A stretch of DNA of 64,000 nt from a virus (Duplodnaviria; Caudoviricetes). Under the pieces are notes generated by a model. That model did no database searches and had not been told where the DNA came from. It worked only from the letters and a program-made list of their open reading frames with translations. Numbering within the stretch: position 1 is the stretch's first letter; each line of letters opens with the position of its first letter. Location of the stretch: positions 1 to 64,000 of IMG/VR virus record IMGVR_UViG_3300022670_001836, one strand, 5' to 3'. Positions 9,728 through 60,903 of this stretch are shown here, piece after piece. The translations under genes and the position numbers were made by a program.

Positions 9728-12259
9728 TCACTCGATGCCGAAGATTTCTTCTTCCAGTTGCGTCTGTGAAACAATCGTGGCCTTCACCAGAATGTAATCG
9801 TTCAACGATTGTTTCAAGCGCACTGTTGATCCAAAGAAAAAGTTGAGAACAGGAATTTTAGAGATGAAGGGAAGCCCGGCGTAATCATCAACCTCTTCAC
9901 CATTGGCAAAGCCGCCGACCAGGATACTGCCACGATCAGGCACCGAAGCTGTTGTCCTGATGGCGCGGTAGGCAATCACCGGTAATTCGATTTGTGTCGC
10001 ACCACTAATGCCTCCGGCATTGGTAGTCACAAAGTCCAAACGAATAAATTCGGCCACGGTGGGTCTCAAATCCATCGTGATGTACTTTCTGTCATGGGAC
10101 ACGATGGGACGAACATCCAAAGAAATACCTGTTTGGATGTAACCAATTTCCGGATCAAAAAGACCGACACCTGCCTGAGTGACCGCTGTGAGGTCTCGAA
10201 TGTAAGCCTGCTGCGTCAAGACTGCAACGTTGGCTCTTTGAGTGTTGAAACAGGTGATCATTGGAGCCACGAGGAAGTTGGCGTGTCTTTTATGGGTCAC
10301 GGCTCTTAAAAGACCGGCGACCTGAAGGTCATTGAGGTATTCGAATGTGATGGCCAGGCCCTCATTGAATTTGACGCCATTATTCTGGTTGTCAATCTGA
10401 TAGGTGAGGCCCACAAAGTTCTGTGTCCGTCCGCGTAGAGTATCACGTCCAGAAGTGGGGCTCAAGAAACCGAGTTCATTACTGATGTTGTTGATGTTGT
10501 CATTTGAGGGGTACTGGTTCAGGACGGTGTCATCACCCCATGGTGTGACGGGCGGTTGGGCCAAGCCGTTGTAGTCGACCCCGACGAAATTGAGGTCAAG
10601 GCTGTTCAGCCTCAAAAAGCGTACTTGAATGGTGACTTGAAGATTTCGTTGGGCTCTCATGCCTGTGAGAATTTCTTCAATCTTTTCGTGGATCTCGACC
10701 GAGTTGTTCACCACGATCGATCCGTTGCGGTACTCGATACTACTATTTTCGCCCCAAGCTTCCTCACCGGTGGCATTGGTGATCAGATCCAGCAAGTCGT
10801 CGCCAGATGGTGGATCTTCATCGGGTTCGAGGATTTCAATCTGAGCACCGCCGGCATCGGCCTGCACCATGCTGATCTGAGGGCCGGCGTAATCGTTGAT
10901 GGTGGCGATGAGGTCACGCACATCGTAATTGACCAATTCGGCTGTGGAGGCAAAGGTTTCTTTGTTTCCAATAAAGATGGTGCCGTACTTCAAGGTCCAG
11001 CCCAGGTTGTCACTTTCGATTTTTGAAACCACGATCTCAAGGACCTGCTTGAAACTTAGGTTGACCACCGGGATTTCATCGATGACCTGTTCGAGGTCGA
11101 TATCGTTGTCCAATTCAATCAATACTTCGTAGGCGATCATCAATTTCTGAATGAGTTCCTCAAGTGGTTGTTCGTCATAAGGCTGGGTGGCGGGTTTGTC
11201 GAGAATACCTCTCAGTCGAGTCTTCCACTCAGATTCAGAAGAACTACGACGGGCGCGGTTGGCCTTCTTGCGCTTACGGGCAATGTCCATGAAATCGTCA
11301 GGGAAGCTGATACCCATATTGGGGTCCAGCAAAATATAACCCTCAGCGTCGTAGAGCTTGCGGGTTTCGTTGTGAATGAATTTCTGGTGAACGGCCAAGG
11401 CGCGCGAGCCTTGATCGATTCGGGTGCCCGAAAGCGATAACATTTTTTTGGCGTGCTCGTTGCCCAGCTCCATCTTCAGAATAATTTTGTAAAGTGCGAT
11501 GGCTCTTTCGTAATCGTGAGAAGCATAACGGTCGTCGGCCTGTTCTGTGAGACTGTCCAGGCGTTCTTGGTAAACGAATTGATTTTTTGCCAGAGCACGT
11601 GCGGCCTCCGCTTCGGCCCGATCTTGTCGGTCCACGGTGATGACTTCATCTTCAGCGCGTCGTCTTCCTTTATTCTCTACGAGGAGGTAATTGATTTTTT
11701 CGCGGTACGCAGTGGCGTTTGAGTCGTAGGGCAAAAAGGCAATGGCATCCAGTGTGGTGGTCAGTTTCTTTTTCGCTTCGTCAAACTTCTTTTCTTTGAT
11801 CAGTTTCTGCGATTCTGCGATGGAGAGTTTGATTTCAATTTCCTGCTGGTTGTCGAAAGCTGTTTTCACATTTCGCTGCTTTTTGAGCAGGTCATCTGTT
11901 TTGTCTTCGGGAATGCCAAGGGCTGAATTGACTTTGGTCAAAAGTTGTTTGGATTTTTTGTGACTCTTCACATAACTGAGGGCGTTGATCAGATTTTCAC
12001 GGGCCTGTTGCAGATCCATTTTTTTGGGATCCTTTTTTTCAGAGGCGGTGTGATCGCTGTAAAATTTGACGGCGGTGCGGTAATGGGAATCGGCAGCCAT
12101 GCGGTTGACCTGTTCGGTCTTGGCCTTGCGCGCTGCGGCTTCTTTGGCCAAATCTGCGGCGCTCTGCTCTTCTTGAGCGGGCAATGCCATAAAAGTGCTG
12201 CAGGCAATCAAAGAGGCAAAGAACAAAAATTTGTAGGGTCTTTTGTGGGTCTTTTTCAT
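9728..12259 (-). CDS. Type II/III secretion-type secretin (GspD/PilQ family) with long helical N-terminus
   Basis: Signal peptide; YDVRDL N-domain motif; QVTIQVRFL; APMITCFNTQRA; GISLDVRPIVSHDRKYITMDL; TTASVPDRGSILVGG; GLPFISKIPVLNFFF secretin signature. Confidence 0.92.
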   Translation of the reverse strand: MKKTHKRPYKFLFFASLIACSTFMALPAQEEQSAADLAKEAAARKAKTEQVNRMAADSHYRTAVKFYSDHTASEKKDPKKMDLQQARENLINALSYVKSHKKSKQLLTKVNSALGIPEDKTDDLLKKQRNVKTAFDNQQEIEIKLSIAESQKLIKEKKFDEAKKKLTTTLDAIAFLPYDSNATAYREKINYLLVENKGRRRAEDEVITVDRQDRAEAEAARALAKNQFVYQERLDSLTEQADDRYASHDYERAIALYKIILKMELGNEHAKKMLSLSGTRIDQGSRALAVHQKFIHNETRKLYDAEGYILLDPNMGISFPDDFMDIARKRKKANRARRSSSESEWKTRLRGILDKPATQPYDEQPLEELIQKLMIAYEVLIELDNDIDLEQVIDEIPVVNLSFKQVLEIVVSKIESDNLGWTLKYGTIFIGNKETFASTAELVNYDVRDLIATINDYAGPQISMVQADAGGAQIEILEPDEDPPSGDDLLDLITNATGEEAWGENSSIEYRNGSIVVNNSVEIHEKIEEILTGMRAQRNLQVTIQVRFLRLNSLDLNFVGVDYNGLAQPPVTPWGDDTVLNQYPSNDNINNISNELGFLSPTSGRDTLRGRTQNFVGLTYQIDNQNNGVKFNEGLAITFEYLNDLQVAGLLRAVTHKRHANFLVAPMITCFNTQRANVAVLTQQAYIRDLTAVTQAGVGLFDPEIGYIQTGISLDVRPIVSHDRKYITMDLRPTVAEFIRLDFVTTNAGGISGATQIELPVIAYRAIRTTASVPDRGSILVGGFANGEEVDDYAGLPFISKIPVLNFFFGSTVRLKQSLNDYILVKATIVSQTQLEEEIFGIE

Positions 12260-14193: not shown

Positions 14194-15144
14194 TCAAATT
14201 CCCTTACTAAAAGGTAAACTTTTTATGTATTGTTCCATGAACTTATAATCGGGGTTACCTTTACCATCTGCGGGTAATTTGATTAAAGATTTGTTCATCC
14301 GAGCAATACCCCATTTTCTCCCGTAGTTGTAGCGGTATTTTTCCCGTCTGATTAAAGTGGTCATAAACAAAGCAACGTATTTGTTCATCTCGAACTTACT
14401 CTTAAATATATGAACAGCTTCAGAAGAACAAAAAGGCAGTGGTTGATAGTAAGATTCAGCGACGCTTCCGTCTCTGTTAACGCTGATAGTGTTGCCTTCA
14501 TGAAAAGGCTCAACTGAAGAAAGGGAAGTCCAGCCATTATTGCTATCAGAAGACGTGACTATTGGGGTTGATCCTACACCATCAACATCTTTTTTTCTTG
14601 GGCCCTGTCCTCTTTCAATGTCAAATAAATCTTGGTATACGAACCATTTCCATTTTTTTACTTCGAGATCAGGCCTTCTATTTTTTATAAAGGGTTGGGC
14701 TTGGTCATCAAAGTTGAAATCAGAAATTGTAGACACCCATCGTGGGATTTCACTAAGCTCTGGAATCAAAATGTCCTTCAGTGTTCTATTTGCCTGCCTT
14801 CCATAATTGTACCTGAATTTGTTCACGTAAATGCAGGCGCAATAAAATAGCTTTTCTTGAAGCGTCATTTCTAGTTTAGGCGTAAGACAAGCTATGTGGT
14901 ACCCAGAATAGAAGGGCTCTAGCTGTAAAAATGTTGATAGTACCGAACCACCTAAGGCAACCGTTATTGTATTGGCGGGTGTGGGCTCTACCCCAAGTAC
15001 GCTTTCAACTTCTGCGCTAACCCCATTATTTTTTTCTGAGCGCGAAACAAAATTAATTCCGTCCGTGCATTTTTTGAGCTTGTTCAATGCAAACCCATTA
15101 CCAGACGCTAAGTCAAAAAGGTCTGATATTTTGAGTAATTTCAT
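14194..15144 (-). CDS. Restriction-modification specificity subunit (BcgIB/HsdS-like)
   Basis: Two homologous TRD halves (NNG...NTI...Q..PF...(F/Y)RYNYGR); 4-bp overlap with the R-M gene. Confidence 0.88.
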   Translation of the reverse strand: MKLLKISDLFDLASGNGFALNKLKKCTDGINFVSRSEKNNGVSAEVESVLGVEPTPANTITVALGGSVLSTFLQLEPFYSGYHIACLTPKLEMTLQEKLFYCACIYVNKFRYNYGRQANRTLKDILIPELSEIPRWVSTISDFNFDDQAQPFIKNRRPDLEVKKWKWFVYQDLFDIERGQGPRKKDVDGVGSTPIVTSSDSNNGWTSLSSVEPFHEGNTISVNRDGSVAESYYQPLPFCSSEAVHIFKSKFEMNKYVALFMTTLIRREKYRYNYGRKWGIARMNKSLIKLPADGKGNPDYKFMEQYIKSLPFSKGI

Positions 15145-16973
15145 GACACACCATTTTTCAGTTTGAAGAGCATATAATTCTTTACGGTCTCTTCAAAATC
15201 ATTTCTGGTGATAGTACTGTAGTCCGTCTCCATATAGGCCTCAACACACCATTCGTCTTCAGGTCCAACCTTCATTTTCACTGAGTGGCCCGGTATTACT
15301 CGGCCATTGCGATAGTTGTCAACCCACCCGTCTCTGATTTCCTCCCACCTGCGGTTCAGGTCATACCGGCCTAGAGTTTTCGTTTTTACAAAGCCATCGT
15401 TTTTCCAATACCCAAACCATGTCTCTTTGTCGGATTGCTCATGAGGTACCTTAGCGGTGAAAATCATAATACAACTAACCACCCCAACAGGCTGAAAAAG
15501 TTCAGTAGGCATAGACATGACGGCTACGAGCGTGTGTTCGTTCAACAGCTCACTCTTTAAGTCATGAGGAGATATGGCCGATGACATCGGTACGATTGCG
15601 ATTCCTGTTCCACCCTTTTTCAAGCAGTGAAGCATGTGTCTAATAAATTCCAACTCATGTAGATCTTCATCGCCCTGTGCATAAGGAGGGTTTAACATCC
15701 CGACATCACATTTTCTCTTTACTATATCATCGGTAATAGCGTTATCAAAACAACTGCCCTGGTATAGATTAGCCTTGCCGTCTCCCCTCAAGATCATATT
15801 GCTTGCTGCCAAAGCATACATGTGAGGAAGATTTTCAACACCGATAAGGCACTCATTTTTTATTTTCACTACCTCCTGGTCGGTTGAAGTCTTCGTAGTC
15901 ATGTTATGCATTGCAGATATTAAAAACCCACCTGTGCCTGCACAGATGTCTAAAACTTTTGAGCTTTTATGGAGATTACCCAGCAAAGAAAAAAGTTCTG
16001 TTATGTGCTTTGGCGTTAATACAATACCCAAAGCTCTCTTATCGCCCCCAGTGTATTTTAAAAACTCCCCGTAAAATTGACCGACTATGTCATAGTTGCC
16101 TTGGTGATTGATATAAGGCCAAACTTCTTTATGAAGCACAGTTATAATTTCACGTAAGACGCCTTCGGGATAGCTTTTAGTCTTCCCCAAATTTGGATGA
16201 ACAGCTATCGATGAGTAGGGTTGTGTAATATTATTCTTTTTGGCCGGCATATCAGCCTTTCCGAACTCTTTTTTGATAGCTCTCATCCACAACCCTTGTA
16301 ACTCGTCAATATCGCATACCCGATAAGCGTTATTGAAGACATTATCTCTCAAAGCAATAAGAGTACCGCTCACCAGTAGGGGCTTTTCACTCTCCGTTAA
16401 TTTCGCGTGGTCTCTCAGAAAGTCATGAAGCTTCGCAGAAAATTTTGTCAGTCTTTCAGAAAATGTTTTTTTGAGTTCGGGGTTGAAATTTGCCAATCGA
16501 ATGTAATCAGACCAACCGATTATCTCTTCTACTGGCTTTCGTGCTTCAGTGCTTAAAGGAATGGCGGAATCAGCGTCTTTGAAATGGATGAAATTTGATA
16601 CCCTTAAATTATTTTTTCTGACGCCACTTACTGCGATAGCAATTACATTATAGGAGGAGGAAAGTGCCTTTGCGTAATGTAGAACGCCGTCTACAGCGTG
16701 CTTCTCAGGGTCCTGTCTACCTTCTTTACTCTCATGATCTTTGATGTTTTTTTTGCATTCAATAACAACAACGTAATCAAATTCTTCGGAATTGGTGATA
16801 ATAAATTCTGGCCTGCCTACGCCTCCGTTCCCTGCTTTTCCAGCAGATTTAAGGCACCTTTTGATGCCCGCAATTTCACTCTCTTGTTCTGTCACCAAAA
16901 AAACGTCGTTTTGATAGCCTCGGTCTTTAAGGATTTTACGTACAATGTTTTCTGTAACTTTTTCGTTCGCCAT
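15141..16973 (-). CDS. Type IIB (BcgI-like) fused endonuclease/N6-adenine methyltransferase
   Basis: N-terminal PEF...IECKK nuclease motif; LDICAGTGGFL (motif I); NPPY (motif IV); paired with an S subunit. Confidence 0.88.
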   Translation of the reverse strand: MANEKVTENIVRKILKDRGYQNDVFLVTEQESEIAGIKRCLKSAGKAGNGGVGRPEFIITNSEEFDYVVVIECKKNIKDHESKEGRQDPEKHAVDGVLHYAKALSSSYNVIAIAVSGVRKNNLRVSNFIHFKDADSAIPLSTEARKPVEEIIGWSDYIRLANFNPELKKTFSERLTKFSAKLHDFLRDHAKLTESEKPLLVSGTLIALRDNVFNNAYRVCDIDELQGLWMRAIKKEFGKADMPAKKNNITQPYSSIAVHPNLGKTKSYPEGVLREIITVLHKEVWPYINHQGNYDIVGQFYGEFLKYTGGDKRALGIVLTPKHITELFSLLGNLHKSSKVLDICAGTGGFLISAMHNMTTKTSTDQEVVKIKNECLIGVENLPHMYALAASNMILRGDGKANLYQGSCFDNAITDDIVKRKCDVGMLNPPYAQGDEDLHELEFIRHMLHCLKKGGTGIAIVPMSSAISPHDLKSELLNEHTLVAVMSMPTELFQPVGVVSCIMIFTAKVPHEQSDKETWFGYWKNDGFVKTKTLGRYDLNRRWEEIRDGWVDNYRNGRVIPGHSVKMKVGPEDEWCVEAYMETDYSTITRNDFEETVKNYMLFKLKNGVS

Positions 16974-50626: not shown

Positions 50627-51070
50627 TTAGCTGGATGATTCTCCTGTGGTCATGTCGCCGAAGGTTCTGAGAGCCATGAATTGAGCGCTCTTTGCCACGA
50701 TGGCATGTTTGGTGATCTCGATGTCGCCTGAGGCAAAGGTACATCCCTCATACTTCTTCAAAACGCGACCGGTGATTTTGTCTTGCACCTCGATGTCAAA
50801 CACAGTGCCCTTCAAAGAGTCTTCAGGTGTGATATGCGCTAGGCCCTCTGAGAACATTGACTGACGGCGTAAAGACATATACTGAACAGTCAAAGAATAA
50901 CGAGCCACGGTGGTGACATGCTCCTGAACTGTGACCTCCCCCACGCCGGAAAGTGGCTCCGGCGCATAATCATCATTCATGCGCAATGACTGTATAACGC
51001 CGACTTCTCGGTTGTCTTGTTTGACAACGATAAGATTGCCTGAGTGAGCGAGTAAATTTGTACGAGCCAT
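50627..51070 (-). CDS. Tail tube protein
   Basis: HSGN...VG.IQS...DDY......GVGE...QEHV; FDIEVQDK...Y.GC; follows the sheath. Confidence 0.88.
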   Translation of the reverse strand: MARTNLLAHSGNLIVVKQDNREVGVIQSLRMNDDYAPEPLSGVGEVTVQEHVTTVARYSLTVQYMSLRRQSMFSEGLAHITPEDSLKGTVFDIEVQDKITGRVLKKYEGCTFASGDIEITKHAIVAKSAQFMALRTFGDMTTGESSS

Positions 51071-51080
51071 ATGTTTCTCC

Positions 51081-53444
51081 TTATGCGGTCAAAGTGCCCT
51101 GGAAGGGGACCAAATGGGCGGCGATCAAAATGTAATTGGCGGGGATCCCGATGGATGCTTCGAAAGAAACCTCAACCACATCACCATTGAGTGTGGCGGT
51201 GATATTTCTAAAACCAGGGTTTTCGGTATCGCCCACGATCAAACCATCGCGCTGCAGGTTGTTTAAGATTGATTGAGTACGAGACACGACCGCTGGCAGA
51301 AAAAAGATATCCGAGACGCGGCCCACAAATTCCAACCCCAATGCCTGTTCAACAGACTCGGCGATCTCATCCGCATTCAAGCGAACTGAGATTTCGGTGT
51401 CTGTGAATTTTGTGCTACCGAGTTCTGTGGTGAGGCCTTGAACAACTCGAATACCCACACCTGGCACGACTTCAGGGAATAATAAACCACCCTGTAACAA
51501 CGCTCGTTGTTCGGCAATGGTGAGATCATTCGTGAATTCGATACCTTGAGTGCTGATGAAGCGATTTGTCACCGCATTGGGGATCCCCAATCCGGCCTGA
51601 AGCCCAGCAAATTGAGCGGCCACCAGGAAGGGATCCAGATCCACTAAATCACCATCATCATTGAAATCTTTGAGACCGAAGGGCACCAAGGCCGTCCGGT
51701 TAGAATTCAGATTGAAGGCACGATCAAGGTAGTTGTCGAGGGTAATTGTTCTTTCGCCGAGCGCCCCGCCGGCGAATTGGACACGGCGTTTTTTGTTGAT
51801 GATGCCAGACATCGTTTGAACATGGGTGTCACCCATCGCATGAACAGAGGCTATAGAGGTCAACAAGCACAATATCTTGATATCAACAGTTTCAAGCAAA
51901 AGAAGTGCTTCGCTCCATTCAGTGTTTGTGAGAGCACCTTCGATGCCGCCGGCGAAGAAAGTGGGCGGAATATTTGTGGGCACGACTTTAGCTGCGCCCG
52001 CTTGGACCGCTTCGATAATGTCACCAAAGCCCCCACTATTGAGGGCATCGATCACGGCTTGAAAATCAGACTTCGCCTGAAAGACAGCTGTTTTGATATC
52101 TTGGGCGGCCACGTCATCCAATTCACTCGATGCGCGAGTGGGAAGGGTGTCTGAAACAATACAGGTGTAGTTGGCATCTGTATCGATAAAATCGCAGAGC
52201 TCTTGCAAAGTGGGAAAGTTTGAAAAAAGCAAATTCAGATTTTCACTGGGTGCGCCGGTCACAGTTGTCGTGAGCGAAGTTGCCCCAATATCCATCACGG
52301 CGGCTGAACCAGCACCGATGTATTGAACGGTAAAACTGTTGCGTTCGACGTTGTCTTCGCGATTGACAGAGCCGTCTTTTTCGAGAGTCAGTTTTTTGCC
52401 GGTTAATGTGCCATCTTCAATTTCCAGTTTGATACCGGTGGTATGCAAACCAAAATCCACGCTGGTGAGATTGATCGTCACAGCAGGAGCGGCAGCCGAT
52501 CCAGAATGAAGTACGTTGTCAAAACCAAAAACGGTGGCCGTCGATGTCACGTTGACTTGGATACTTGAAGCAACGCCGAGAGTGTTTGAAACAAGGCTCA
52601 GCTCAAGCCCAGCCAACTGATTGACGGTGAGGCCGGCAATGGCCGCCTCGATCACAGTTTTGGCTTCTGCGAAGGTGACAGCGTTGATATCGGCCACGTT
52701 ACCGGTGCCCGCAACCAGGCCGAGTGCTTGTCCGATTTTCGCCAAAATTGTACCGGAGCCTGCAATAATATTCACGCTTGAAGCGGTGCCCTCGCTATCT
52801 GATTTGATGTCGATTTCACCCGCATTGATAATGGCCGCAGCACCCAGCAATTGGGCGTTGATAACTTGTGCGTACAACTCGGCAGTGGTTTCGGTACCCG
52901 CTCCAAAAGTAATGGTTTGAGTAGGGCCCCCATCAATGCTGATATCAAGGGTTTCTGCAGCCGAAGCGGCGAAGGTGCCGGCAGCCCCTGCCTTGAGTCC
53001 TGAGGTGGCCAAGAAGGTGGCTGTTGCATCTCCCCCAGCATCCACATCGACCACCAAAGTTTGGCCGGCATCGAGGTTCCAGGGAGCAGCAGCAGTGCCA
53101 TCGGCCTGGCCCGCTGAAGCGGCGACGCCTGAATTGAGATCAAGGATTGACTGGGTGGCCGCGTTGGCGCGAATTGTAAAAAGCTCAAAAACACCTGGGC
53201 TGTCAGCCGAAGGAGCAAAACACTTTTTACAGGCTTCGACGATATCACCCTTACGGTGAGCGCGACGCACTGAAGTGATGTCTGTGAAACGACGAATCAA
53301 ATTAGGCTCACCGCCCTCCGCCTGGCCGACAATGGCCACAATGATTGAGTTGTCAACGTTATCGTTATTGAGCGCGGTATCATCAATTCTTGCGGCCGCT
53401 TGCGGCTTGATAAGAAATTGACCATCAAAGTTAACTCCACCCAT
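51081..53444 (-). CDS. Contractile tail sheath protein with inserted domains
   Basis: IVGQAEGGEP; C-terminal IRVVQGLTT...EISV...PANYILI. Confidence 0.92.
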   Translation of the reverse strand: MGGVNFDGQFLIKPQAAARIDDTALNNDNVDNSIIVAIVGQAEGGEPNLIRRFTDITSVRRAHRKGDIVEACKKCFAPSADSPGVFELFTIRANAATQSILDLNSGVAASAGQADGTAAAPWNLDAGQTLVVDVDAGGDATATFLATSGLKAGAAGTFAASAAETLDISIDGGPTQTITFGAGTETTAELYAQVINAQLLGAAAIINAGEIDIKSDSEGTASSVNIIAGSGTILAKIGQALGLVAGTGNVADINAVTFAEAKTVIEAAIAGLTVNQLAGLELSLVSNTLGVASSIQVNVTSTATVFGFDNVLHSGSAAAPAVTINLTSVDFGLHTTGIKLEIEDGTLTGKKLTLEKDGSVNREDNVERNSFTVQYIGAGSAAVMDIGATSLTTTVTGAPSENLNLLFSNFPTLQELCDFIDTDANYTCIVSDTLPTRASSELDDVAAQDIKTAVFQAKSDFQAVIDALNSGGFGDIIEAVQAGAAKVVPTNIPPTFFAGGIEGALTNTEWSEALLLLETVDIKILCLLTSIASVHAMGDTHVQTMSGIINKKRRVQFAGGALGERTITLDNYLDRAFNLNSNRTALVPFGLKDFNDDGDLVDLDPFLVAAQFAGLQAGLGIPNAVTNRFISTQGIEFTNDLTIAEQRALLQGGLLFPEVVPGVGIRVVQGLTTELGSTKFTDTEISVRLNADEIAESVEQALGLEFVGRVSDIFFLPAVVSRTQSILNNLQRDGLIVGDTENPGFRNITATLNGDVVEVSFEASIGIPANYILIAAHLVPFQGTLTA

Positions 53445-53455
53445 CGAAATACTCC

Positions 53456-53671
53456 TTATTTACCTTTGAATTCTTCGAAACGGGAGGCGTAGTTTTTCTT
53501 TGTGTCCCGTACCCTTCCGGCTACTTTTTCTTGATGTAGAAAGCCACCTAACAAGGCAGAATTACGGGAATCAACAACGCTATTCACAAACCTTTGAATT
53601 GAAACCAAAGGCTCACGTACTGGAGCTTCTTGTTGAGTTGGATTAGACGTCGATTTTGATTTCTTCCCCAT
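53456..53671 (-). CDS. Small phage protein upstream of the sheath
   Basis: 71-aa ORF with AAGGAAG RBS. Confidence 0.65.
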   Translation of the reverse strand: MGKKSKSTSNPTQQEAPVREPLVSIQRFVNSVVDSRNSALLGGFLHQEKVAGRVRDTKKNYASRFEEFKGK

Positions 53672-54043
53672 CTTCCTTGCTTCCTTTCGTTCTCATTTGT
53701 CAAACAAACGAGAGTTGGATTCAGCAAGGGGGTAGTTGCCTTGTTATGATTTCAAATAATATAGTTCTTAAGTTGGGGGATAGCGACTATGAGATTGATA
53801 TTGAGGGGTACGGCAATTGCCCCTGCCGAGATTAGAGATCAGCATTAAGTGCGTACGCTGAGATCGTAGAACCATCGTTGGCTTCGGGGTTCGTTTTTGA
53901 AAATCTTATAGTCGTTCGTGTTTACCTTTTGTTATCCTGTTATCAGAACCACACATTGATGAGGCAATGTGCGCTGACAGCGCAGAAGTGGCGATCGCCG
54001 CCCAAAAAACGCCCTCATTTTTTGATACGTTTGCGTTATAATT

Positions 54044-54071
54044 GGTTCGTATAATAGATGTTATGTTCTCG
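54044..54071 (+). other. attI-like (also dif-like) recombination site heading the cassette array
   Basis: GGTTCGTATAA-TAGATG-TTATGTTCTCG; G/TTATGT (54060-54066) is the exact complement of ACATAAC in attC1. Confidence 0.65.
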
Positions 54072-54094
54072 AATCACAAAAAGGGGTATTCACA

Positions 54095-54430
54095 ATGAAG
54101 TATTGTTTAATTTTAACTTTCTTGCTTTTGACTGGTTGCACATCAGACGTTCTTCACGTTGGGAAAGACACATACATGGTGTCGTCAAGTGGCGCAGGTT
54201 TTTCCACAGGTGGAGTGCGGACAAGTGTTATCGAAAAAGCTAACAAGTTTTGTGCGGAACAAGGCAAGGTTATGGTCATTCTTAGTCTTGACGTTCAGCC
54301 GGGAAGGCTCGGAAGAAATCCCCCGAGTGCCGATTTAACCTTTAGAGCTGTTGCGCCAGAAGATGCTGAAAATGTGCGGCCTAATTTTGAGCGTGCTCCT
54401 GATCATATTCAAGAATATAGGGTTAGATAA
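54095..54430 (+). CDS. Lipoprotein (cassette 1)
   Basis: LLTGC lipobox; GKDTYMVS...ANKFCAEQGK. Confidence 0.85.
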   Translation: MKYCLILTFLLLTGCTSDVLHVGKDTYMVSSSGAGFSTGGVRTSVIEKANKFCAEQGKVMVILSLDVQPGRLGRNPPSADLTFRAVAPEDAENVRPNFERAPDHIQEYRVR

Positions 54431-54487
54431 ATAAATGAAGCTGCTAAATCATTATGGGAAATTGCGGAAGAATATCTTGAAAAGAAC

Positions 54488-54543
54488 ACATAACTAAGCG
54501 CTGCAGCGGAACCCTACGGGCCCGCTGAGCTTTGATGTTAGAC
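54488..54543 (+). other. attC site 1 (56 bp)
   Basis: ACATAAC-taagc-GCTGCAGC-ggaaccctacgggccc-GCTGAGC-tttgat-GTTAGAC. Confidence 0.9.
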
Positions 54544-54724
54544 CTTGCTTCTATTGTGCCCAAATACATCAATTTATTTATTGTGTCTAAAGTGTCTATT
54601 CCGAAGATATTTTAGAAATTTCAAATCTTGTAGCGGCAAGTCATTTTAAAGTTAAGATGTTAGTTAGCTTTAGCTTAAACCCTTCGAAAGGAACGAATAT
54701 GGTAAATTGGAAAGCGTGTCAAAA

Positions 54725-55357
54725 ATGAAAAAAACAATAACCGCCTTGGCATTTGTCATCGGCCTAATGTTTGCGAGTATAGCGCAGGAAAAACAAAAAG
54801 AATGGTCAGCACAGATTGGCCTAACGAATTCAACTCTTGATGAAGAAACAGTTGTTGGGGTCAACACCACAAGCGATTATTTGGACGACTTCAGTGTGGG
54901 CACAGATGTTAAAATTCAGTACCACATAAGCGACATGTTTTCGATTGGCATTGGCCGTAATGAGATCACCTTCGATGAAGATAGTTTTGATCCGGCTGAA
55001 AGCTTGAGCGATCTTAAGATGAATGCGACCTATATTAGCTTAACTTTTAGCGCCCCAAAAAGAACTTGGCAGGGCTATGGCTCTATAGAAATTGGTGATA
55101 GCGACATTGATGATGTTGATGTCACTTACACTGCCACCGCCTTCACCAATAATATTTATGAGGGTGAATCGGGAAATTACTTTGCATTTGGCGGCGGTGT
55201 TAAATACCATATTAACGAGGACATTTTCTTGGATTTTTCTTTTCGCGTAAGAGATTATGGGACGATCCAAAGAAATGCGGTAAATTACACAGCGGCGATT
55301 CAAGATGTTGATGTCGTGACTTCTGGTTTCGATATTGCATTTGGTATAAAGTTCTAA
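54725..55357 (+). CDS. Outer-membrane beta-barrel protein (OmpA/OmpW-like; cassette 2)
   Basis: Signal peptide; FGGGVKY; C-terminal FGIKF. Confidence 0.85.
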   Translation: MKKTITALAFVIGLMFASIAQEKQKEWSAQIGLTNSTLDEETVVGVNTTSDYLDDFSVGTDVKIQYHISDMFSIGIGRNEITFDEDSFDPAESLSDLKMNATYISLTFSAPKRTWQGYGSIEIGDSDIDDVDVTYTATAFTNNIYEGESGNYFAFGGGVKYHINEDIFLDFSFRVRDYGTIQRNAVNYTAAIQDVDVVTSGFDIAFGIKF

Positions 55358-55366
55358 GGACTATTT

Positions 55367-55430
55367 ATCTAACTAAGCGCTGCAGCGGACACAGCACCAG
55401 AGCGAGCCGTTTGCCCCGCCTCCGCTCAGA
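55367..55430 (+). other. attC site 2, truncated (left half only)
   Basis: ATCTAAC-taagc-GCTGCAGC-gga..., with no matching L'/GTTRRRY. Confidence 0.7.
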
Positions 55431-55486
55431 GACCTAATAAAAAGAAAAAAAAGTGAATTAAACTTTGAAATAATATTGGAGAAAAC

Positions 55487-55939
55487 ATGTCAAAAACAAT
55501 TGAACAAATGCTTTTCAACAATCAAATGTTTAGCATTTTAACTTTAAAGAAAGATCCCAATTTAGGAAATAATATTTCTGACGCTTATGCCTATGCATGG
55601 TATCACAGTATTTATCCTTTTTTTCATGACGATGCCGAATGGCATAAGCCATATGGTGATCTTTTTAAAATTTCAGGCAGTATGGTGGATGAAATCAGCC
55701 TTTTCTTTGACACAATTTGGAAACAGCAAAATACAATTTCATTTTATGAGCTTGAGGAGCAATTTAAGGCGAAGACTCATTGGCCTCGATCTTCTTTAAT
55801 AGTCGTTTGTAGATACCTGTTTCTAGATGATGGTTTTAGCAATACATTTTGGAACAAGCTTTGTGAAAACAAGAAATGCCCTGTAGAAGCGCATTCAATA
55901 ATATTACCATTTAAAGCAAGTGATCTATATCTTGAATAA
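55487..55939 (+). CDS. Hypothetical protein (cassette 3)
   Basis: GGAG RBS; ends 14 bp before attC3. Confidence 0.8.
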   Translation: MSKTIEQMLFNNQMFSILTLKKDPNLGNNISDAYAYAWYHSIYPFFHDDAEWHKPYGDLFKISGSMVDEISLFFDTIWKQQNTISFYELEEQFKAKTHWPRSSLIVVCRYLFLDDGFSNTFWNKLCENKKCPVEAHSIILPFKASDLYLE

Positions 55940-55953
55940 TCGAATAGTTTATC

Positions 55954-56009
55954 ATCTAACTAAGCGCTGCAGCGGAACCCTACGGGCCCGCTGAGCTTAG
56001 TTGTTAGAC
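55954..56009 (+). other. attC site 3 (56 bp)
   Basis: ATCTAAC-taagc-GCTGCAGC-ggaaccctacgggccc-GCTGAGC-ttagtt-GTTAGAC; core identical to attC1. Confidence 0.9.
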
Positions 56010-56017
56010 CGTAAGAA

Positions 56018-56182
56018 TCATTCTGAGGTTAAATTTTCGTTTGAAGAATTTGATTCCGGTCTTTTAAAAACTGAAGGTGGTGGTGGTGCAATCGGAGCTA
56101 CAGTTCTTGTACCAGGCTTATCAGCCGCTTTTACCAAACTCTTAACAACGCCTTCAGTTAGTGGTGAGATTTTTTTTTCCAT
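56018..56182 (-). CDS. Small proline-rich peptide (54 aa)
   Basis: AAGGAGGT RBS; MEKKISPLTEGVVKSLVKAADKPGTRTVAPIAPPPPSVFKRPESNSSNENLTSE; overlaps the 3' end of the membrane gene. Confidence 0.7.
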   Translation of the reverse strand: MEKKISPLTEGVVKSLVKAADKPGTRTVAPIAPPPPSVFKRPESNSSNENLTSE

Positions 56183-56834
56183 CGGTTACCTCCTTTAACA
56201 TTGCGTTAGGTATTTGCTCTATTATAAACTTTCCTGCTTCTTTTGACAAATAAATCGTAGGCACTTCATATAGAAGGTTTGAAATTTCATCAAAAACAGA
56301 CACTTCGTAGAGAACGAGCTCCTGAACTTTTTCATTCTCTGAATAAGATTTAAGCCTCCCTTGATAAATTTTCTTTTCATCAAAATCGCGGATGTATAAC
56401 CAATCAATTTCTTTTGAGTTCAAATAATATGAATAAAGATTTTCATCACCATACTTAACCCCCACTTTACATATTCTCGCAACTCTGTTCATCACTTTAT
56501 GATTTATTATTGCCGATGCAAAAAAAGCGACCGGAACCGCAAGTAGTGTTGCCCAAAATATTTCGCTGATATTAATAATAAAATCTGTTTTTTCGAAATT
56601 ATTTAAAATAGTCAATTTTTCAAAGAAAATACGTTCAATCCGAATGGCGGAAAAAAAATCAATAATTATGTATGCCGTTTGTAGAGAGCCGTATGAAAGA
56701 GTGCCTAATAAGAAAGAATAAAGAACGAACTTAAAAGGGTTCCATTTTGAATGGACGGCAATCTTATCACAAACGATTGCTGCCACGATTCCTGGAAAAA
56801 ATATTATCATTAGAGTAACAGCGAGTTGGTTCAT
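56154..56834 (-). CDS. DUF6338-like membrane protein
   Basis: IFFPGI first TM, three TMs, C-terminal YQGRLKSYSE...ELVL.EV...IYL domain. Confidence 0.7.
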   Translation of the reverse strand: MNQLAVTLMIIFFPGIVAAIVCDKIAVHSKWNPFKFVLYSFLLGTLSYGSLQTAYIIIDFFSAIRIERIFFEKLTILNNFEKTDFIINISEIFWATLLAVPVAFFASAIINHKVMNRVARICKVGVKYGDENLYSYYLNSKEIDWLYIRDFDEKKIYQGRLKSYSENEKVQELVLYEVSVFDEISNLLYEVPTIYLSKEAGKFIIEQIPNAMLKEVTDGKKNLTTN

Positions 56835-57118
56835 TGCACGATTATAACCAAAAACTCTTGTTCTTTACCGTATCAGATAATAATTTATTTGAAAAAAACA
56901 ACAGGTATCAAAACAAAATTAAAACCGCTCGAACATTTCATGAACACAACATTTTCACGTTTACATGTTCAAAGTGATCAAAGTGATCAAAGTGATTGTT
57001 TTCAAATTGGTTTTCCGAAATTACAATTTTGGGGTCAAATGTTTCGCTTTCAAGTTGGTATGATTGCGAATAAGGAAAACTTAATAATGATATCTTTATT
57101 TCATGAAAGAAATTAATA

Positions 57119-57244
57119 ATGTGTGCACACCTGATTTTTTTTGGGCTTCATTTCTTGGCCTTGATATTTGGATTTTTCGGTTTATTTATTACTATCCCAC
57201 TACACCTTATTTTCACGGCCATATCAGCAAAAAAGAAAAATTAA
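57119..57244 (+). CDS. Small membrane protein (41 aa)
   Basis: MCAHLIFFGLHFLALIFGFFGLFITIPLHLIFTAISAKKKN; lies just before attC4. Confidence 0.6.
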   Translation: MCAHLIFFGLHFLALIFGFFGLFITIPLHLIFTAISAKKKN

Positions 57245-57293
57245 TAATGCTCAATAGAGATTTGATTGTGTTTGTTAGAACCCACCCTGTTTC

Positions 57294-57349
57294 GCCTAAC
57301 TAGGCGCTTGAGGGCACGGACAAACCGCCCCTCATCTTGAATATTAGGC
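57294..57349 (+). other. attC site 4 (56 bp) with non-consensus R' (ATTAGGC)
   Basis: GCCTAAC-taggc-GCTTGAGG-...-CCTCATC-ttgaat-ATTAGGC; same 7-5-8...7-6-7 geometry as attC1/3. Confidence 0.7.
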
Positions 57350-57895: not shown

Positions 57896-59272
57896 ATGAT
57901 TATCGGCATGAAAAAAAGCAAAAAAGAGAAGTCGTTTTTAGCAGATAGTTTAGCCCATATTGTTAAAAATTCAGATGTCAAAAATTGGGGCACCTTTAAA
58001 GATAGTTTGAGAGCACCCGTTCATCGTTGGTTTACATATCCAGCAGGATTTTCTTATAAAGCTGTCGAGCATTCTTTGGAGCGTTATAAAATTGTAGAAG
58101 GTATGACCGTTTATGACCCATTTATGGGGTCCGGTACAACGAATTTGACATGTAAAACTCTGGGTGTAAATTCTGTTGGCGTTGAAGCGCATCCATTAGT
58201 TTTTAAGATTACTCAAGCGAAAATGAATTGGAACCTTAAGCCAAAAGAGGCCTGTAAATTTATTGATATGTGTGAGAAAAATTTTGAAAAACGATTAAAA
58301 ACAATTACTTCAAAAAAATCTTTTGATGTGACAGACCATTTTCCCGAGTTGATTTTCAAATGCTATCCGTTAGAAACCGTTAAAAAACTATACACTTTAA
58401 GAGAAATGTATCTAACTGAAAAAATGTCTAGAGCCGCCCAAGGTTTCTTTTATGTGGTTCTTACGGCTCTGTTGCGTAATGTATCTAGCGCTGCAACAGG
58501 TTGGCCTTACATTGCTCCAAAAAAATTAAAAATCACATCTGAGAGTAAATGTGTCAAAACGGAATTTGTAAAGTTGGCAAGAAGAATGGTGCAAGACCTT
58601 CAGGATATTCAAGAATCATTTTTAAGTGGAGTGGCATCGTCAAATCACAATATTTTCAGGGGAGACTCGAGAGACACGAAGAAAAAGATTGAAGATGAAA
58701 GTGTAGACCATATATTTACTTCACCACCGTATTTAAATAATTTTGATTATGCAGACAGGACAAGATTGGAGTTGTACTTTTGGGGCGAGGCAAAAACATG
58801 GGGTGAAATTAGTGCCAAAATACGCACAAAATTAATCACATCTGCAACTACGCAGATCAATCGCAGCGATTCTAAATATGAATTACGACCAGATTTCATT
58901 GCGGACTGTCCCGAAATCACTAAGTTTTTGCAAAAGTCTGCGGATAAATTGGGTGAAGTGAGACTGGTGAAAGGCGGAAAGAAAAGTTATGACCTTATGG
59001 TTTTAGGTTACTTCAATGATTTATATCTAATCCTTAAAGATTGCTATCGAGTTTTGCGACCTAATACTAAAGCGTTATTTGTGCTCGGAGACTCTGCACC
59101 TTATGGCGTGCACATTCCAACGGATAAACTAATTGGTGAAATCGGTTTGTGTTTAGGTTTCGCAGATTACAAACAGGAAGTCCTCAGAAAACGAGGAGAC
59201 AAATGGAAGTCAAATCCACAAAGACACTCTGTTGCATTGCAAGAATCTATAATTATTTTAGAGAAAAAATAA
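57896..59272 (+). CDS. Type II DNA methyltransferase (probable N4-cytosine)
   Basis: DPFMGSGTT (motif I) before TSPPY (motif IV). Confidence 0.9.
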   Translation: MIIGMKKSKKEKSFLADSLAHIVKNSDVKNWGTFKDSLRAPVHRWFTYPAGFSYKAVEHSLERYKIVEGMTVYDPFMGSGTTNLTCKTLGVNSVGVEAHPLVFKITQAKMNWNLKPKEACKFIDMCEKNFEKRLKTITSKKSFDVTDHFPELIFKCYPLETVKKLYTLREMYLTEKMSRAAQGFFYVVLTALLRNVSSAATGWPYIAPKKLKITSESKCVKTEFVKLARRMVQDLQDIQESFLSGVASSNHNIFRGDSRDTKKKIEDESVDHIFTSPPYLNNFDYADRTRLELYFWGEAKTWGEISAKIRTKLITSATTQINRSDSKYELRPDFIADCPEITKFLQKSADKLGEVRLVKGGKKSYDLMVLGYFNDLYLILKDCYRVLRPNTKALFVLGDSAPYGVHIPTDKLIGEIGLCLGFADYKQEVLRKRGDKWKSNPQRHSVALQESIIILEKK

Positions 59273-60093
59273 TGGCTGATTATAAAAAAGTTGCCAACCC
59301 TGGCAGTGCTTTAGGCGAAGCTGTAGGTGCTTCAATGGAATGCGCTTTAAAAGAAGAATTAGGCGTATTCGCTGATGATAGTGGTTTTCATTATTTGACA
59401 TCAGGCGTTCGAAAAACAAAGTCTGGTGCAAAAGTCAAAAAATTGTTGATGTCAGACAACTATGCTAATGAATATAATATAGATGGTGTCTTAGCAAATG
59501 ATGCTATGCAACCTTTAATAATTTTTGAATCAAAATACATTAGGTACAAGAAACATAACCGAGACAAAGGAAGTTGGATTTGTACAGCGCATTCAGCAGT
59601 TAGACGAAGATATCACAGCATACGCAGTTCAATCGCGGTGCTTGCAGGAAGTTGGAGCGGTTCTTCACGTACAATGATGCAAAGTAACGACATCAATTTA
59701 TTTTTAATACCCTTTGAAAATATTTGTGAAATATTACTTACGCTTGGTGTTGACTTTCAGTGGGCCGAGAAGGATAAGAAGAAGGCTACGGAAGCGTGGC
59801 TGGCATGGAATCAACTTTCAGAGCCAGAAAAGTCGAGTGTAGGGCGACAGATGATTGAAGTAATCAAGGAGCCCTTAAAAGAACTAATTGAAAAAATATT
59901 AGACGATTCAATTGAAAGAGAAATTGAGAAAGTGGTTGTCGAAATCACTTCAAATATCGGTGAATTAAAAGTGTTTGAGTTTGATACTGTTGAGGAGGCC
60001 ATAGAATTTTTGGGTCAAGATGAATTGAGAGATTATTTTACAACGACAGACTCACTTTCTCTTTTTGACCCGCCGCCTGAATTCGAAGAATAA
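59272..60093 (+). CDS. Type II restriction endonuclease (PD-(D/E)XK)
   Basis: IDGVL...IFESKY; TAATG coupling to the MTase; start reassigned to ATG 59272. Confidence 0.75.
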   Translation: MADYKKVANPGSALGEAVGASMECALKEELGVFADDSGFHYLTSGVRKTKSGAKVKKLLMSDNYANEYNIDGVLANDAMQPLIIFESKYIRYKKHNRDKGSWICTAHSAVRRRYHSIRSSIAVLAGSWSGSSRTMMQSNDINLFLIPFENICEILLTLGVDFQWAEKDKKKATEAWLAWNQLSEPEKSSVGRQMIEVIKEPLKELIEKILDDSIEREIEKVVVEITSNIGELKVFEFDTVEEAIEFLGQDELRDYFTTTDSLSLFDPPPEFEE

Positions 60094-60273: not shown

Positions 60274-60903
60274 CTAACAATCCGGATCATTAATATTCGT
60301 CACTTCCGTGACAACCACATCATCGATGAGATCGGTCAGGATATCTGTGTGGGGAATCAATGTCTTACACGACAAATTGAAACCTCGGCTAGTGATCAGA
60401 TTGGGCGCAAATTCCTCGTGATTTTGTAAAGGCGTTCCACTTATCAAAATATCCAACATGCCCTCACTATTGAAAAAATTCAGACTGGTCACCAAGGCCA
60501 CCCGGACGAAATGATGAAGCAGCACCGTTGTGGTGGGTTCTTTCGACCAAACGACGATGCCGAAGTTTTGTTCCCAATACTCGCCTTTTGTTCGTTCAAA
60601 CTGACTATCAGTCTCGTTAAATTCTTCGGTGACGTTGTTGCCCACTGAGGGGTGAGAAACCCTCTCTTGCCCTGGCACAACGTGTATCATGGGCATTCTG
60701 GTATCGATTCTTGGGTAGGCGTGCAAAACTGGCAGGTCTTCAAGGGCGGCATAATAGTCTTTGAATTCTTGAAGCTCAGCCGCTGTTAAATCTTCATCGA
60801 AAAGAACATCAAAAACAGCGGGGTCGGCGGTGGCGGCGTCGATAAATACTTTGATTTGCTTGACGATCAATCGCTCTGCCAGGGCCAGTCTCGGAATGGT
60901 CAT
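60274..60903 (-). CDS. Tail completion/terminator protein
   Basis: HAYPR....PMIHV; position at the end of the neck genes. Confidence 0.7.
   Translation of the reverse strand: MTIPRLALAERLIVKQIKVFIDAATADPAVFDVLFDEDLTAAELQEFKDYYAALEDLPVLHAYPRIDTRMPMIHVVPGQERVSHPSVGNNVTEEFNETDSQFERTKGEYWEQNFGIVVWSKEPTTTVLLHHFVRVALVTSLNFFNSEGMLDILISGTPLQNHEEFAPNLITSRGFNLSCKTLIPHTDILTDLIDDVVVTEVTNINDPDC

Follow-up and report, generated by a model that had tools for sequence, protein, structure and literature searches.

Cassette arrays behind a repeated, putative attI site in a large phage: a probable integrase-less integron platform

Integrons are seen as bacterial devices, and phages mostly as their targets (many cassettes are anti-phage) or as accidental carriers. 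Here, we describe a 6.5-kb island in a phage record, IMGVR_UViG_3300022670_001836, that contains an array of integron cassettes with attC sites and no adjacent integrase gene (intI). The window, that is, the whole stretch of DNA that was analyzed, is the first 64 kb (64,000 nucleotides) of this 134,459-bp record, and positions in the two are the same. We consider it probable that the island is an integrase-less integron platform, in which an integron-type recombinase, probably acting in trans, placed cassettes at a reusable docking site.

Integrase-less cassette clusters of phages are already known. A 2023 survey of 10,705 phage genomes by Qi et al. (PMC9892861) found 17 integrase-less clusters in addition to 3 complete integrons and 1 lone integrase, counts that update the statement of a first-pass annotation of this DNA that integrons and clusters of attC sites lacking an integron integrase (CALINs) are rarely reported in phages. 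Several of the integrase-less clusters described there are accompanied by methyltransferases; Pseudoalteromonas phage PH101, Tetrasphaera phage TJE1, and Polaribacter phage P12002L are among the examples. According to the same survey, five of six phage attC sites recombined with attI1 under IntI1, entry by illegitimate recombination was proposed, and Vibrio anguillarum phages acquired parts of host chromosomal integrons. The locus described here resembles those clusters in its attC-bounded cassettes, absent intI, mostly uniform orientation, and associated DNA methyltransferases. It differs in size and in its head: in the sections of the survey consulted here, two attC sites suffice for a cluster and the detailed example has three, whereas the present phage bears 11 or more, spread over four arrays; and whereas those sections report no conserved head site for virulent phages, every array here opens with the same ~45-bp head and an exact G|TT junction.

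Three other systems invite comparison. The Shewanella prophage M16-3 (PMC9892861) carries a complete integron and, between tail, capsid, and terminase genes, a CALIN with an attI at its head. In both phages, an array amid structural genes opens with an attI site, a putative one in the present phage, and more than one copy of the site is present. M16-3, however, has an intact IntI beside one array and a known Shewanella-type attI, and it is considered a cryptic 40-kb prophage, whereas the present phage has no IntI in 134 kb, a head site that matches no known attI, and structural genes that are long open frames. Secondly, Loot et al. (preprint 10.1101/2022.09.11.507474) report that IntI inserts cassettes into double-stranded GWT genomic sites (attG), described as dif-like, and suggest that attI sites evolved from such hotspots. 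Insertion beyond the classical integron, a double-stranded site, the G|WT cleavage point, and a dif-like core are common to attG and to the head site described here; attG insertions are scattered single events in bacterial chromosomes, whereas here a longer conserved site is repeated, repeatedly occupied, and located in a phage. Finally, mobile integrons of classes 1 to 5 likewise have short arrays, attC sites of mixed sequence and length, a mobile carrier, and cassettes that mostly face one way, but the phage arrays are without intI, a recognizable Pc promoter, or resistance genes, and their carrier is a phage rather than a transposon or plasmid. What is new is the occurrence of four arrays in one phage, with a conserved head and exact junctions in all four, and with no integrase in 134 kb.

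The head region of the window array comprises two parts:

54019–54063, + strand: attI-like docking site, ~45 bp, ending ...TATAATAGATG|TTA, with the predicted crossover between G54060 and T54061
53770–54018, + strand: upstream part of the head region, consisting of two modules

Four nearly identical copies of the ~45-bp head are present in the record, ending at 54063, 74533, 82379, and 84916. When the copies are aligned, their homology halts exactly at G|TTA; the next bases are TGT, GGC, GGT, and TAC, and each copy then has a different first cassette that matches its own attC. Because each head copy is loaded differently, the site appears to work as a reusable docking point. The first-pass annotation had proposed a landing pad for cassettes, and this part of its proposal gains support from the fourfold head, its G|TTA end, and the differing cassettes. 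The head site resembles an attI after insertion of different cassettes, and we designate it a putative attI. Homology between the head regions also extends upstream: by self-BLAST, 53754–54063 matches 74248–74533 (77% identity) and 53879–54067 matches 82194–82383 (88%), while the final 46 bp of the head region recur at 84872–84917 in a self-comparison of the record. These upstream parts are mosaics of two or three modules; one of the two in the window also belongs to the 74248 copy, and the other recurs in those at 74.4 and 82.2 kb. We also noted that window positions 54044–54071 read like a dif or pdif site, with an 11-bp arm ending in ATAA, a 6-bp center, and an arm starting TTATGTT. A conserved head hairpin was considered and rejected, its fold z-score being significant only in the window copy and not in the 74- and 82-kb copies.

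An integron integrase cuts between the G and the TT of the R' box. Each R' box in an array is therefore a hybrid, with its G from one cassette and TTRRRY from the next, and the first six bases of a cassette are thus expected to pair with the R'' box of that same cassette rather than with the one in the adjoining site. The window holds the following cassettes:

54061–54537, + strand: cassette 1, 477 bp, start TTATGT, a 6/6 complement of its own R'' box ACATAAC
54538–56003, + strand: cassette 2/3, 1466 bp, start TTAGAC, a 5/6 match to its own R'' box; probably two fused cassettes
56004–57343, + strand: cassette 4, 1340 bp, holding a reverse-oriented gene and small open reading frames (ORFs)

The match between cassette start and own R'' box had been pointed out for the first cassette, where GTTATGT at 54060–54066 is the exact complement of ACATAAC at 54488–54494, and it extends to ten cassettes across the record: eight match at 6/6 and two at 5/6 (6/6, 5/6, and 5/6 in the window). 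In the array at 82.4–84.6 kb, the starts alternate between TTAGGT and TTAGGC, tracking the R'' box of the same cassette and not the abutted site. Read from the sequence, the cassette starts are the footprint of IntI-type recombination, with hybrid R' boxes of the kind a G|TT crossover would leave.

To score the attC sites, we used a home-built covariance model (R1) made from 30 attC sites of bacterial cassette arrays. The arrays came from a scan of a genome collection with an 18-base attC word, which returned mostly lone chance matches yet also real bacterial arrays for training; no host of the phage emerged from it. All five source genomes tested, which supply 20 of the 30 training sites, have an intI match above the curated NCBI cut-off, as against 0 of 14 controls. 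In the training alignment, 89.8% of cells are paired, compared with 23–46% when the partners are slid, and 12 pairs are changed on both sides; this covariation supports an R helix, an L helix, and a single 5'-side base left unpaired. When applied to the 134-kb record, R1 found 11 sites, every one on the + strand and 9 of them at E < 0.01:

54488–54543, + strand: attC site 1, 56 bp, R'' ACATAAC, R' GTTAGAC; 39.5 bits, E 3.5e-8
55367–~55430 (model match 55367–55415), + strand: degenerate attC; 14.5 bits, E 0.19–0.24 in larger searches and 0.012 on the island alone
55954–56009, + strand: attC site 3, 56 bp, R'' ATCTAAC, R' GTTAGAC; 45.1 bits, E 1.1e-9
57294–57349, + strand: attC site 4, 56 bp, R'' GCCTAAC, R' ATTAGGC; 16.6 bits, borderline with E 0.05–0.06 in larger searches and 0.003 on the island alone
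75002–75129, + strand: attC, 48.3 bits
76881–76938, + strand: attC, 44.4 bits
82789–82913, + strand: attC, 33.8 bits
83259–83384, + strand: attC, 22.9 bits
84130–84185, + strand: attC, 25.4 bits
84525–84574, + strand: attC, 37.6 bits
85247–85302, + strand: attC, 20.9 bits

As a control, R1 was run on 119 kb from other viral loci and from unrelated ones; it gave 5 matches at E ≤ 1, which fell on three viral contigs other than this one. The opposite strand of the window sites scored much lower (16.9, 5.8, and 4.3 bits); the first two of these values stand against 45.1 and 16.6 bits, respectively, on the top strand. R-box and L-box cells of the phage sites are 86.8% paired, versus 27–48% with the partners slid, and G:C is swapped for C:G at two pairs in three of the sites. 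The 7-bp R helix (R'' RYYYAAC, R' GTTRRRY) is 88% paired across the phage sites. By model score, pairing, and strand asymmetry, the window sites behave as attC sites and are putative substrates of an integron integrase.

The individual window sites differ in quality. The first-pass annotation had described three 56-bp sites with correct box geometry and an extra base in L'', two of them with identical cores, plus one truncated site. Sites 1 and 3 bear out this description: AAC and GTT are in place, the unpaired column on the L'' side, between a 3-bp and a 6-bp helix, is clear, and the cores are near-identical (52 of 54 bases). Their bottom strands fold at −9.7 kcal/mol (site 1) and −12.3 kcal/mol (site 3; z −2.4). 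Site 4 is weaker, with an A in place of the conserved G of its R' box and a less clean unpaired column; its fold reaches −13.6 kcal/mol (z −3.0), and it is 89–92% identical to 84123–84185 and 85250–85299, which makes it near-kin of the sites at 84130 and 85247. The truncated site, at 55367, is as described: R'' and L'' match those of sites 1 and 3, an L'-like stretch follows, and the R' box is absent. The covariance-model check that had been suggested for these sites came out at E ≤ 3.5e-8 for sites 1 and 3, borderline for site 4, and below significance for the degenerate site. An R''-like ACCTAAT (window 55421–55436) sits at the expected R' position of the degenerate site, after the L'-like stretch, and hints at an old rearrangement between sites. 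R1 found no further attC in the island, including after the restriction gene, and Rfam at gathering thresholds gave no match in the window, although Rfam may contain no attC family. With four sites in 2.9 kb and no intI nearby, the window array is a CALIN.

The three further arrays, each with the same head site, lie at 74248–78000, 82060–84575, and 84735–85302, between the portal and terminase genes. Model-positive attC sites number at least seven there, with lengths of 50–128 bp, and truncated ones occur at ~77227 and ~77931; the attC sites of the phage fall into at least three sequence types. Two small lipoprotein genes (85325–85995) follow the last attC. A scan of viral sequences with the 18-base attC word returned 9 contigs, only two or three of which have model-positive attC sites. 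One 86-kb viral contig, IMGVR_UViG_3300033153_005726, carries two on its − strand, ~1 kb apart (1056–1177 and 2086–2217; E 2e-6 and 1e-4), and is a further candidate phage cassette cluster.

No intI adjoins the array, as had been noted, and the statement can be widened to the record: no integron integrase was found in its 134 kb, with no match to the TIGR02249 model above 28–38 bits against a cut-off of 265. The locus is accordingly not a complete integron, with an adjacent intI, within this record. The sole tyrosine recombinase is a Xer-like protein of 343 amino acids (aa) encoded at 120450–121481. We considered this enzyme as an IntI and rejected it for want of a full-length family match: it scores 38 bits against the IntI model TIGR02249 (cut-off 265) and aligns only at model positions 243–303, the catalytic C terminus. 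We also looked for the head site in bacteria. A 20-base head-site word, allowed up to 2 mismatches, occurred once in 401 genomes (the class of the metagenome-assembled genome that holds one of the bacterial arrays), compared with 8 occurrences of a reversed-pattern control, which is chance level, and the word was found in 0 of 5 marine genomes that have similar attC words.

The cargo is mainly related to the cell envelope, as the first-pass annotation had it. Cassette 1 encodes a 111-aa lipoprotein with an LTGC lipobox (ORF 54095–54430), whose homologs, 55–70% identical, occur on short metagenome contigs and in integrative elements without attC. In cassette 2/3, ORF 54725–55357 encodes a 210-aa outer-membrane beta-barrel (Pfam OMP_b-brl, E 1.2e-10, 42.3 bits versus a cut-off of 28.7), and the 150-aa product of ORF 55487–55939 matched only itself among 5.8 billion proteins. 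Cassette 4 encodes a 226-aa DUF6338-like membrane protein (56154–56834, − strand; feature score 0.95, structure TM 0.75–0.82 to DUF6338 clusters in the Atlas), together with a 54-aa ORF (56018–56182, − strand) and a small hydrophobic ORF (57119–57244, + strand). Most proteins of the other arrays have signal peptides, lipoboxes, or membrane segments, and cassette proteins across the record are mostly small exported or membrane proteins. The beta-barrel is the only cassette protein matched by Pfam or NCBIfam, and none of six cassette proteins scanned with PADLOC, four of them from the window array, matches a known defense family. It is plausible that the envelope cargo alters the cell surface of lysogens; the first-pass annotation's more specific proposal, receptor masking or exclusion of other phages, is a hypothesis. 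The arrays are presumably expressed; a sigma-70 consensus scan revealed no recognizable Pc promoter for the cassettes, and promoter-like matches in the island are no commoner than in shuffled sequence. A 209-bp non-coding segment of cassette 4 (56909–57117) is 87% identical to 75606–75831, part of a cassette in the next array. The segment, in which 9-mers are repeated in tandem (CAAAGTGAT three times at 56909–57117, CAAAGTGTT five times at 75606–75831), may be a common regulatory or operator region.

The array is only part of a larger island, whose limits became apparent from two relatives found through the tail sheath protein, a 4,954-bp contig (L144, 86% identity) and a 116-kb contig (63%):

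53770–60273, + strand: whole island, with head region, cassette array, and restriction-modification pair, delimited by BLASTN and alignments with L144
57896–59272, + strand: type II DNA methyltransferase, 458 aa (PADLOC MTase_II, 218 bits, E 4.7e-65; Pfam N6_N4_Mtase, E 1.5e-13; also PHROG)
59272–60093, + strand: probable type II restriction endonuclease, 273 aa (PADLOC REase_II, 45.5 bits, E 1.8e-12)
53456–53671, − strand: left backbone, 71-aa gene that opens the sheath operon; its 70-aa and 80-aa homologs directly precede the sheath gene in both relatives
60274–60903, − strand: right backbone, 209-aa neck-region gene, directly after whose stop codon the island begins

By BLASTN, L144 1162–4945 matches 53769–49959 and L144 3–1073 matches 61340–60276, so the island stands in place of ~88 bp of L144. 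In L144, a gap of 180 bp separates a 209-aa gene from a 70-aa gene, after which comes the sheath gene; in the 116-kb relative, the 205-aa, 80-aa, and sheath genes lie within ~10 bp of one another, and neither relative has the island. The array had been placed inside a tail-morphogenesis operon. It does lie within the structural gene cluster, but in an intergenic gap (the 180-bp gap of L144) at the start of the sheath operon. Base composition sets the island apart, its G+C content being 0.34–0.40 versus 0.48–0.51 in the phage flanks. The methyltransferase and the adjacent endonuclease, whose ATG overlaps the methyltransferase stop codon (its length is counted from that ATG), constitute a predicted type II restriction-modification system. 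A CTATATT-centered motif on the − strand (window 53754–53769 and record ~74250–74265), upstream of − strand operons, is conserved in L144 and may be a phage late promoter.

In the sequencing run from which the record probably derives, a 45.8-kb unitig leads from the tail genes into the array-specific head region, to 53957. Another, of 17.4 kb, extends from 57088 in cassette 4 across the restriction-modification genes and those for neck, head, and portal, and reaches the following head copy. These two independent unitigs anchor both ends of the island in phage DNA without any need to resolve repeats. Two "skip" joints (54063 to 56909 and 54064 to 57297) were considered as excision products and rejected; their sides are only 27–28 bases long, and we take them to be overlaps between repeats of different arrays.

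On the reading that we prefer, that of an integrase-less platform, the array would start from a double-stranded, attI-like site that ends at G54060|T54061 and would continue with three to four cassettes, each closed by a hairpin attC, before the restriction-modification pair closes the island. An integron-type tyrosine recombinase, cutting between G and TT, would have installed the cassettes, and would have done so with different cassettes at each of the four head copies (here and at ~74.5, 82.4, and 84.9 kb). This recombinase is not encoded in the 134-kb record and would most likely have come in trans from a host integron during infection or lysogeny. We infer that the integrase was the host's and that capture occurred in the phage, not before transfer.

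Several observations weigh against this reading. First, both relatives are without the entire island, the restriction-modification pair included, which fits an en-bloc gain, part of the refuting case named in the first-pass annotation (a single such insertion into a dead prophage), as well as stepwise capture. Second, the phage has no empty copy of the head site, exact scans of viral and metagenome collections with two 24-base words, one from the head site and one from its upstream module, gave no match, and the DNA 3' of the last attC shares nothing between arrays. Third, the array may now be partly frozen, because its last attC has an A for the conserved G and another attC is degenerate. Fourth, a consensus scan detected no sigma-70 promoter in the head region or the conserved 45 bp. 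Fifth, the absence of intI covers the record only, which spans 134 of 158.6 kb and is 84% complete by CheckV, and an intI may lie in the ~24 kb of contig just outside it. Two further points concern the data themselves: some R1 training sites were reached via a word derived from attC sites of the phage itself, and this favors the L'' half of the model; and the short-read metagenome assembly orders the cassettes between 53929 and 57116 through repeats only a few dozen bases long, which makes that order less certain.

Among the alternatives, the one that survives best, and that we still regard as unlikely, is passive capture: a piece of a bacterial integron, with attI and cassettes and perhaps the restriction-modification genes, would have entered the phage by illegitimate or homologous recombination, been duplicated, and remained as inert cargo. 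Relatives that lack the entire island fit one such gain; the mosaic of shared upstream modules in the head regions suggests spread by homologous recombination; the 209-bp segment is common to cassettes of two arrays; the array includes a degenerate attC and one whose R' box is mutated; and the V. anguillarum phages of PMC9892861 offer a precedent. A duplicated block, however, would copy its cassettes, so the differing contents need either integrase-type turnover after duplication or four captures. Four heads with four different first cassettes, every one of which has its junction precisely at G|TT and agrees with its own R'' box, are therefore hard to derive from passive copying, and the diversity of attC types and lengths looks like sampling from a mixed pool rather than a slice of one sedentary integron.

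We think it improbable that a Xer-type recombinase, either the 343-aa phage enzyme or the host XerCD, acts on the head core, as in Xer-exploiting elements and pdif modules. The core does have a dif-like 11-6-11 layout with inner arms ATAA/TTAT, the crossover falls at the edge of the 6-bp central region, and the entire phage recombinase can be aligned with the XerC and XerD models (80–84 bits). The core also fits a dif-style pattern with 0 mismatches, but this degenerate pattern was written after the site had been seen, so the perfect match is weak evidence. With 84 bits against 335, the phage enzyme falls well short of all Xer cut-offs, and no second dif-like site bounds the island. Moreover, the attC sites of the mobile units are hairpins that combine R and L boxes with an extrahelical base, a type of site on which integron integrases act, and both the strand asymmetry and the hybrid R' boxes are consistent with the IntI pathway via single-stranded DNA. 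Least probable is an assembly artefact in which bacterial cassettes were stitched into a phage contig via shared repeats, for although the stretch is contained in only one run, a marine sediment metagenome and its probable source, unitigs break at the head repeat and attC cores, and depths range from 11 to 29 across the array, the 45.8-kb and 17.4-kb unitigs tie both island ends to the phage and leave only the inner cassette order and copy number open.

The integrase-less platform could be part of a larger strategy, which we put forward tentatively and with somewhat less than even confidence. The phage may have evolved its own multi-copy attI-like site, may use the IntI of whichever host it enters, and may load, carry, and perhaps unload cassettes between lineages, with the envelope proteins and restriction-modification system benefiting the phage in lysogens. 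If dedicated docking copies are indeed served by a host integrase, phages can tap the cassette pool systematically, transduction would be an added route for spreading cassettes between lineages, and the head site would be a natural example of the way in which an attI may arise from a double-stranded hotspot. As the site is only 45 bp long and the junctions are exact, the idea is directly testable by standard recombination assays.

The carrier itself is, by its predicted genes, a large myovirus, with a complete set of myovirus parts in the record:

42.6–47.8 kb, − strand: baseplate and hub proteins
tube protein at 50627–51070, − strand: tail chaperones and tube protein
51081–53444, − strand: tail sheath gene (PHROG 279 tail sheath, E 6e-42)
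60.9–62.2 kb, − strand: virion proteins
64.9–66.3 kb, − strand: major head protein
71.7–73.1 kb, − strand: portal
94.5–96.0 kb, − strand: large terminase

Primase and helicases are also encoded, besides the tyrosine recombinase at 120.4–121.5 kb. By sheath protein, the nearest isolates are Bordetella phage PHB04, Aeromonas phage ST4, and Pseudomonas phage Touem01 (34–37% identity; 35–37% for PHB04 and ST4). The record, labeled a provirus and 84% complete by CheckV, was cut from a 158,641-bp contig. A marine sediment metagenome is the only sequencing run that contains the stretch, and its probable source; no RNA run is among the runs listed for the stretch. The first 28,000 positions of the window have a lower G+C content (0.35–0.43), and no phage structural genes were seen there. 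This left 28 kb may be host DNA or another element, which makes the provirus borders doubtful. Its genes include those for a TIGR-Tas-like protein (23439–24326; NCBIfam 61.8 bits, under the cut-off of 100), a large methyltransferase (15141–16973), and a secretin-like protein (9728–12259).

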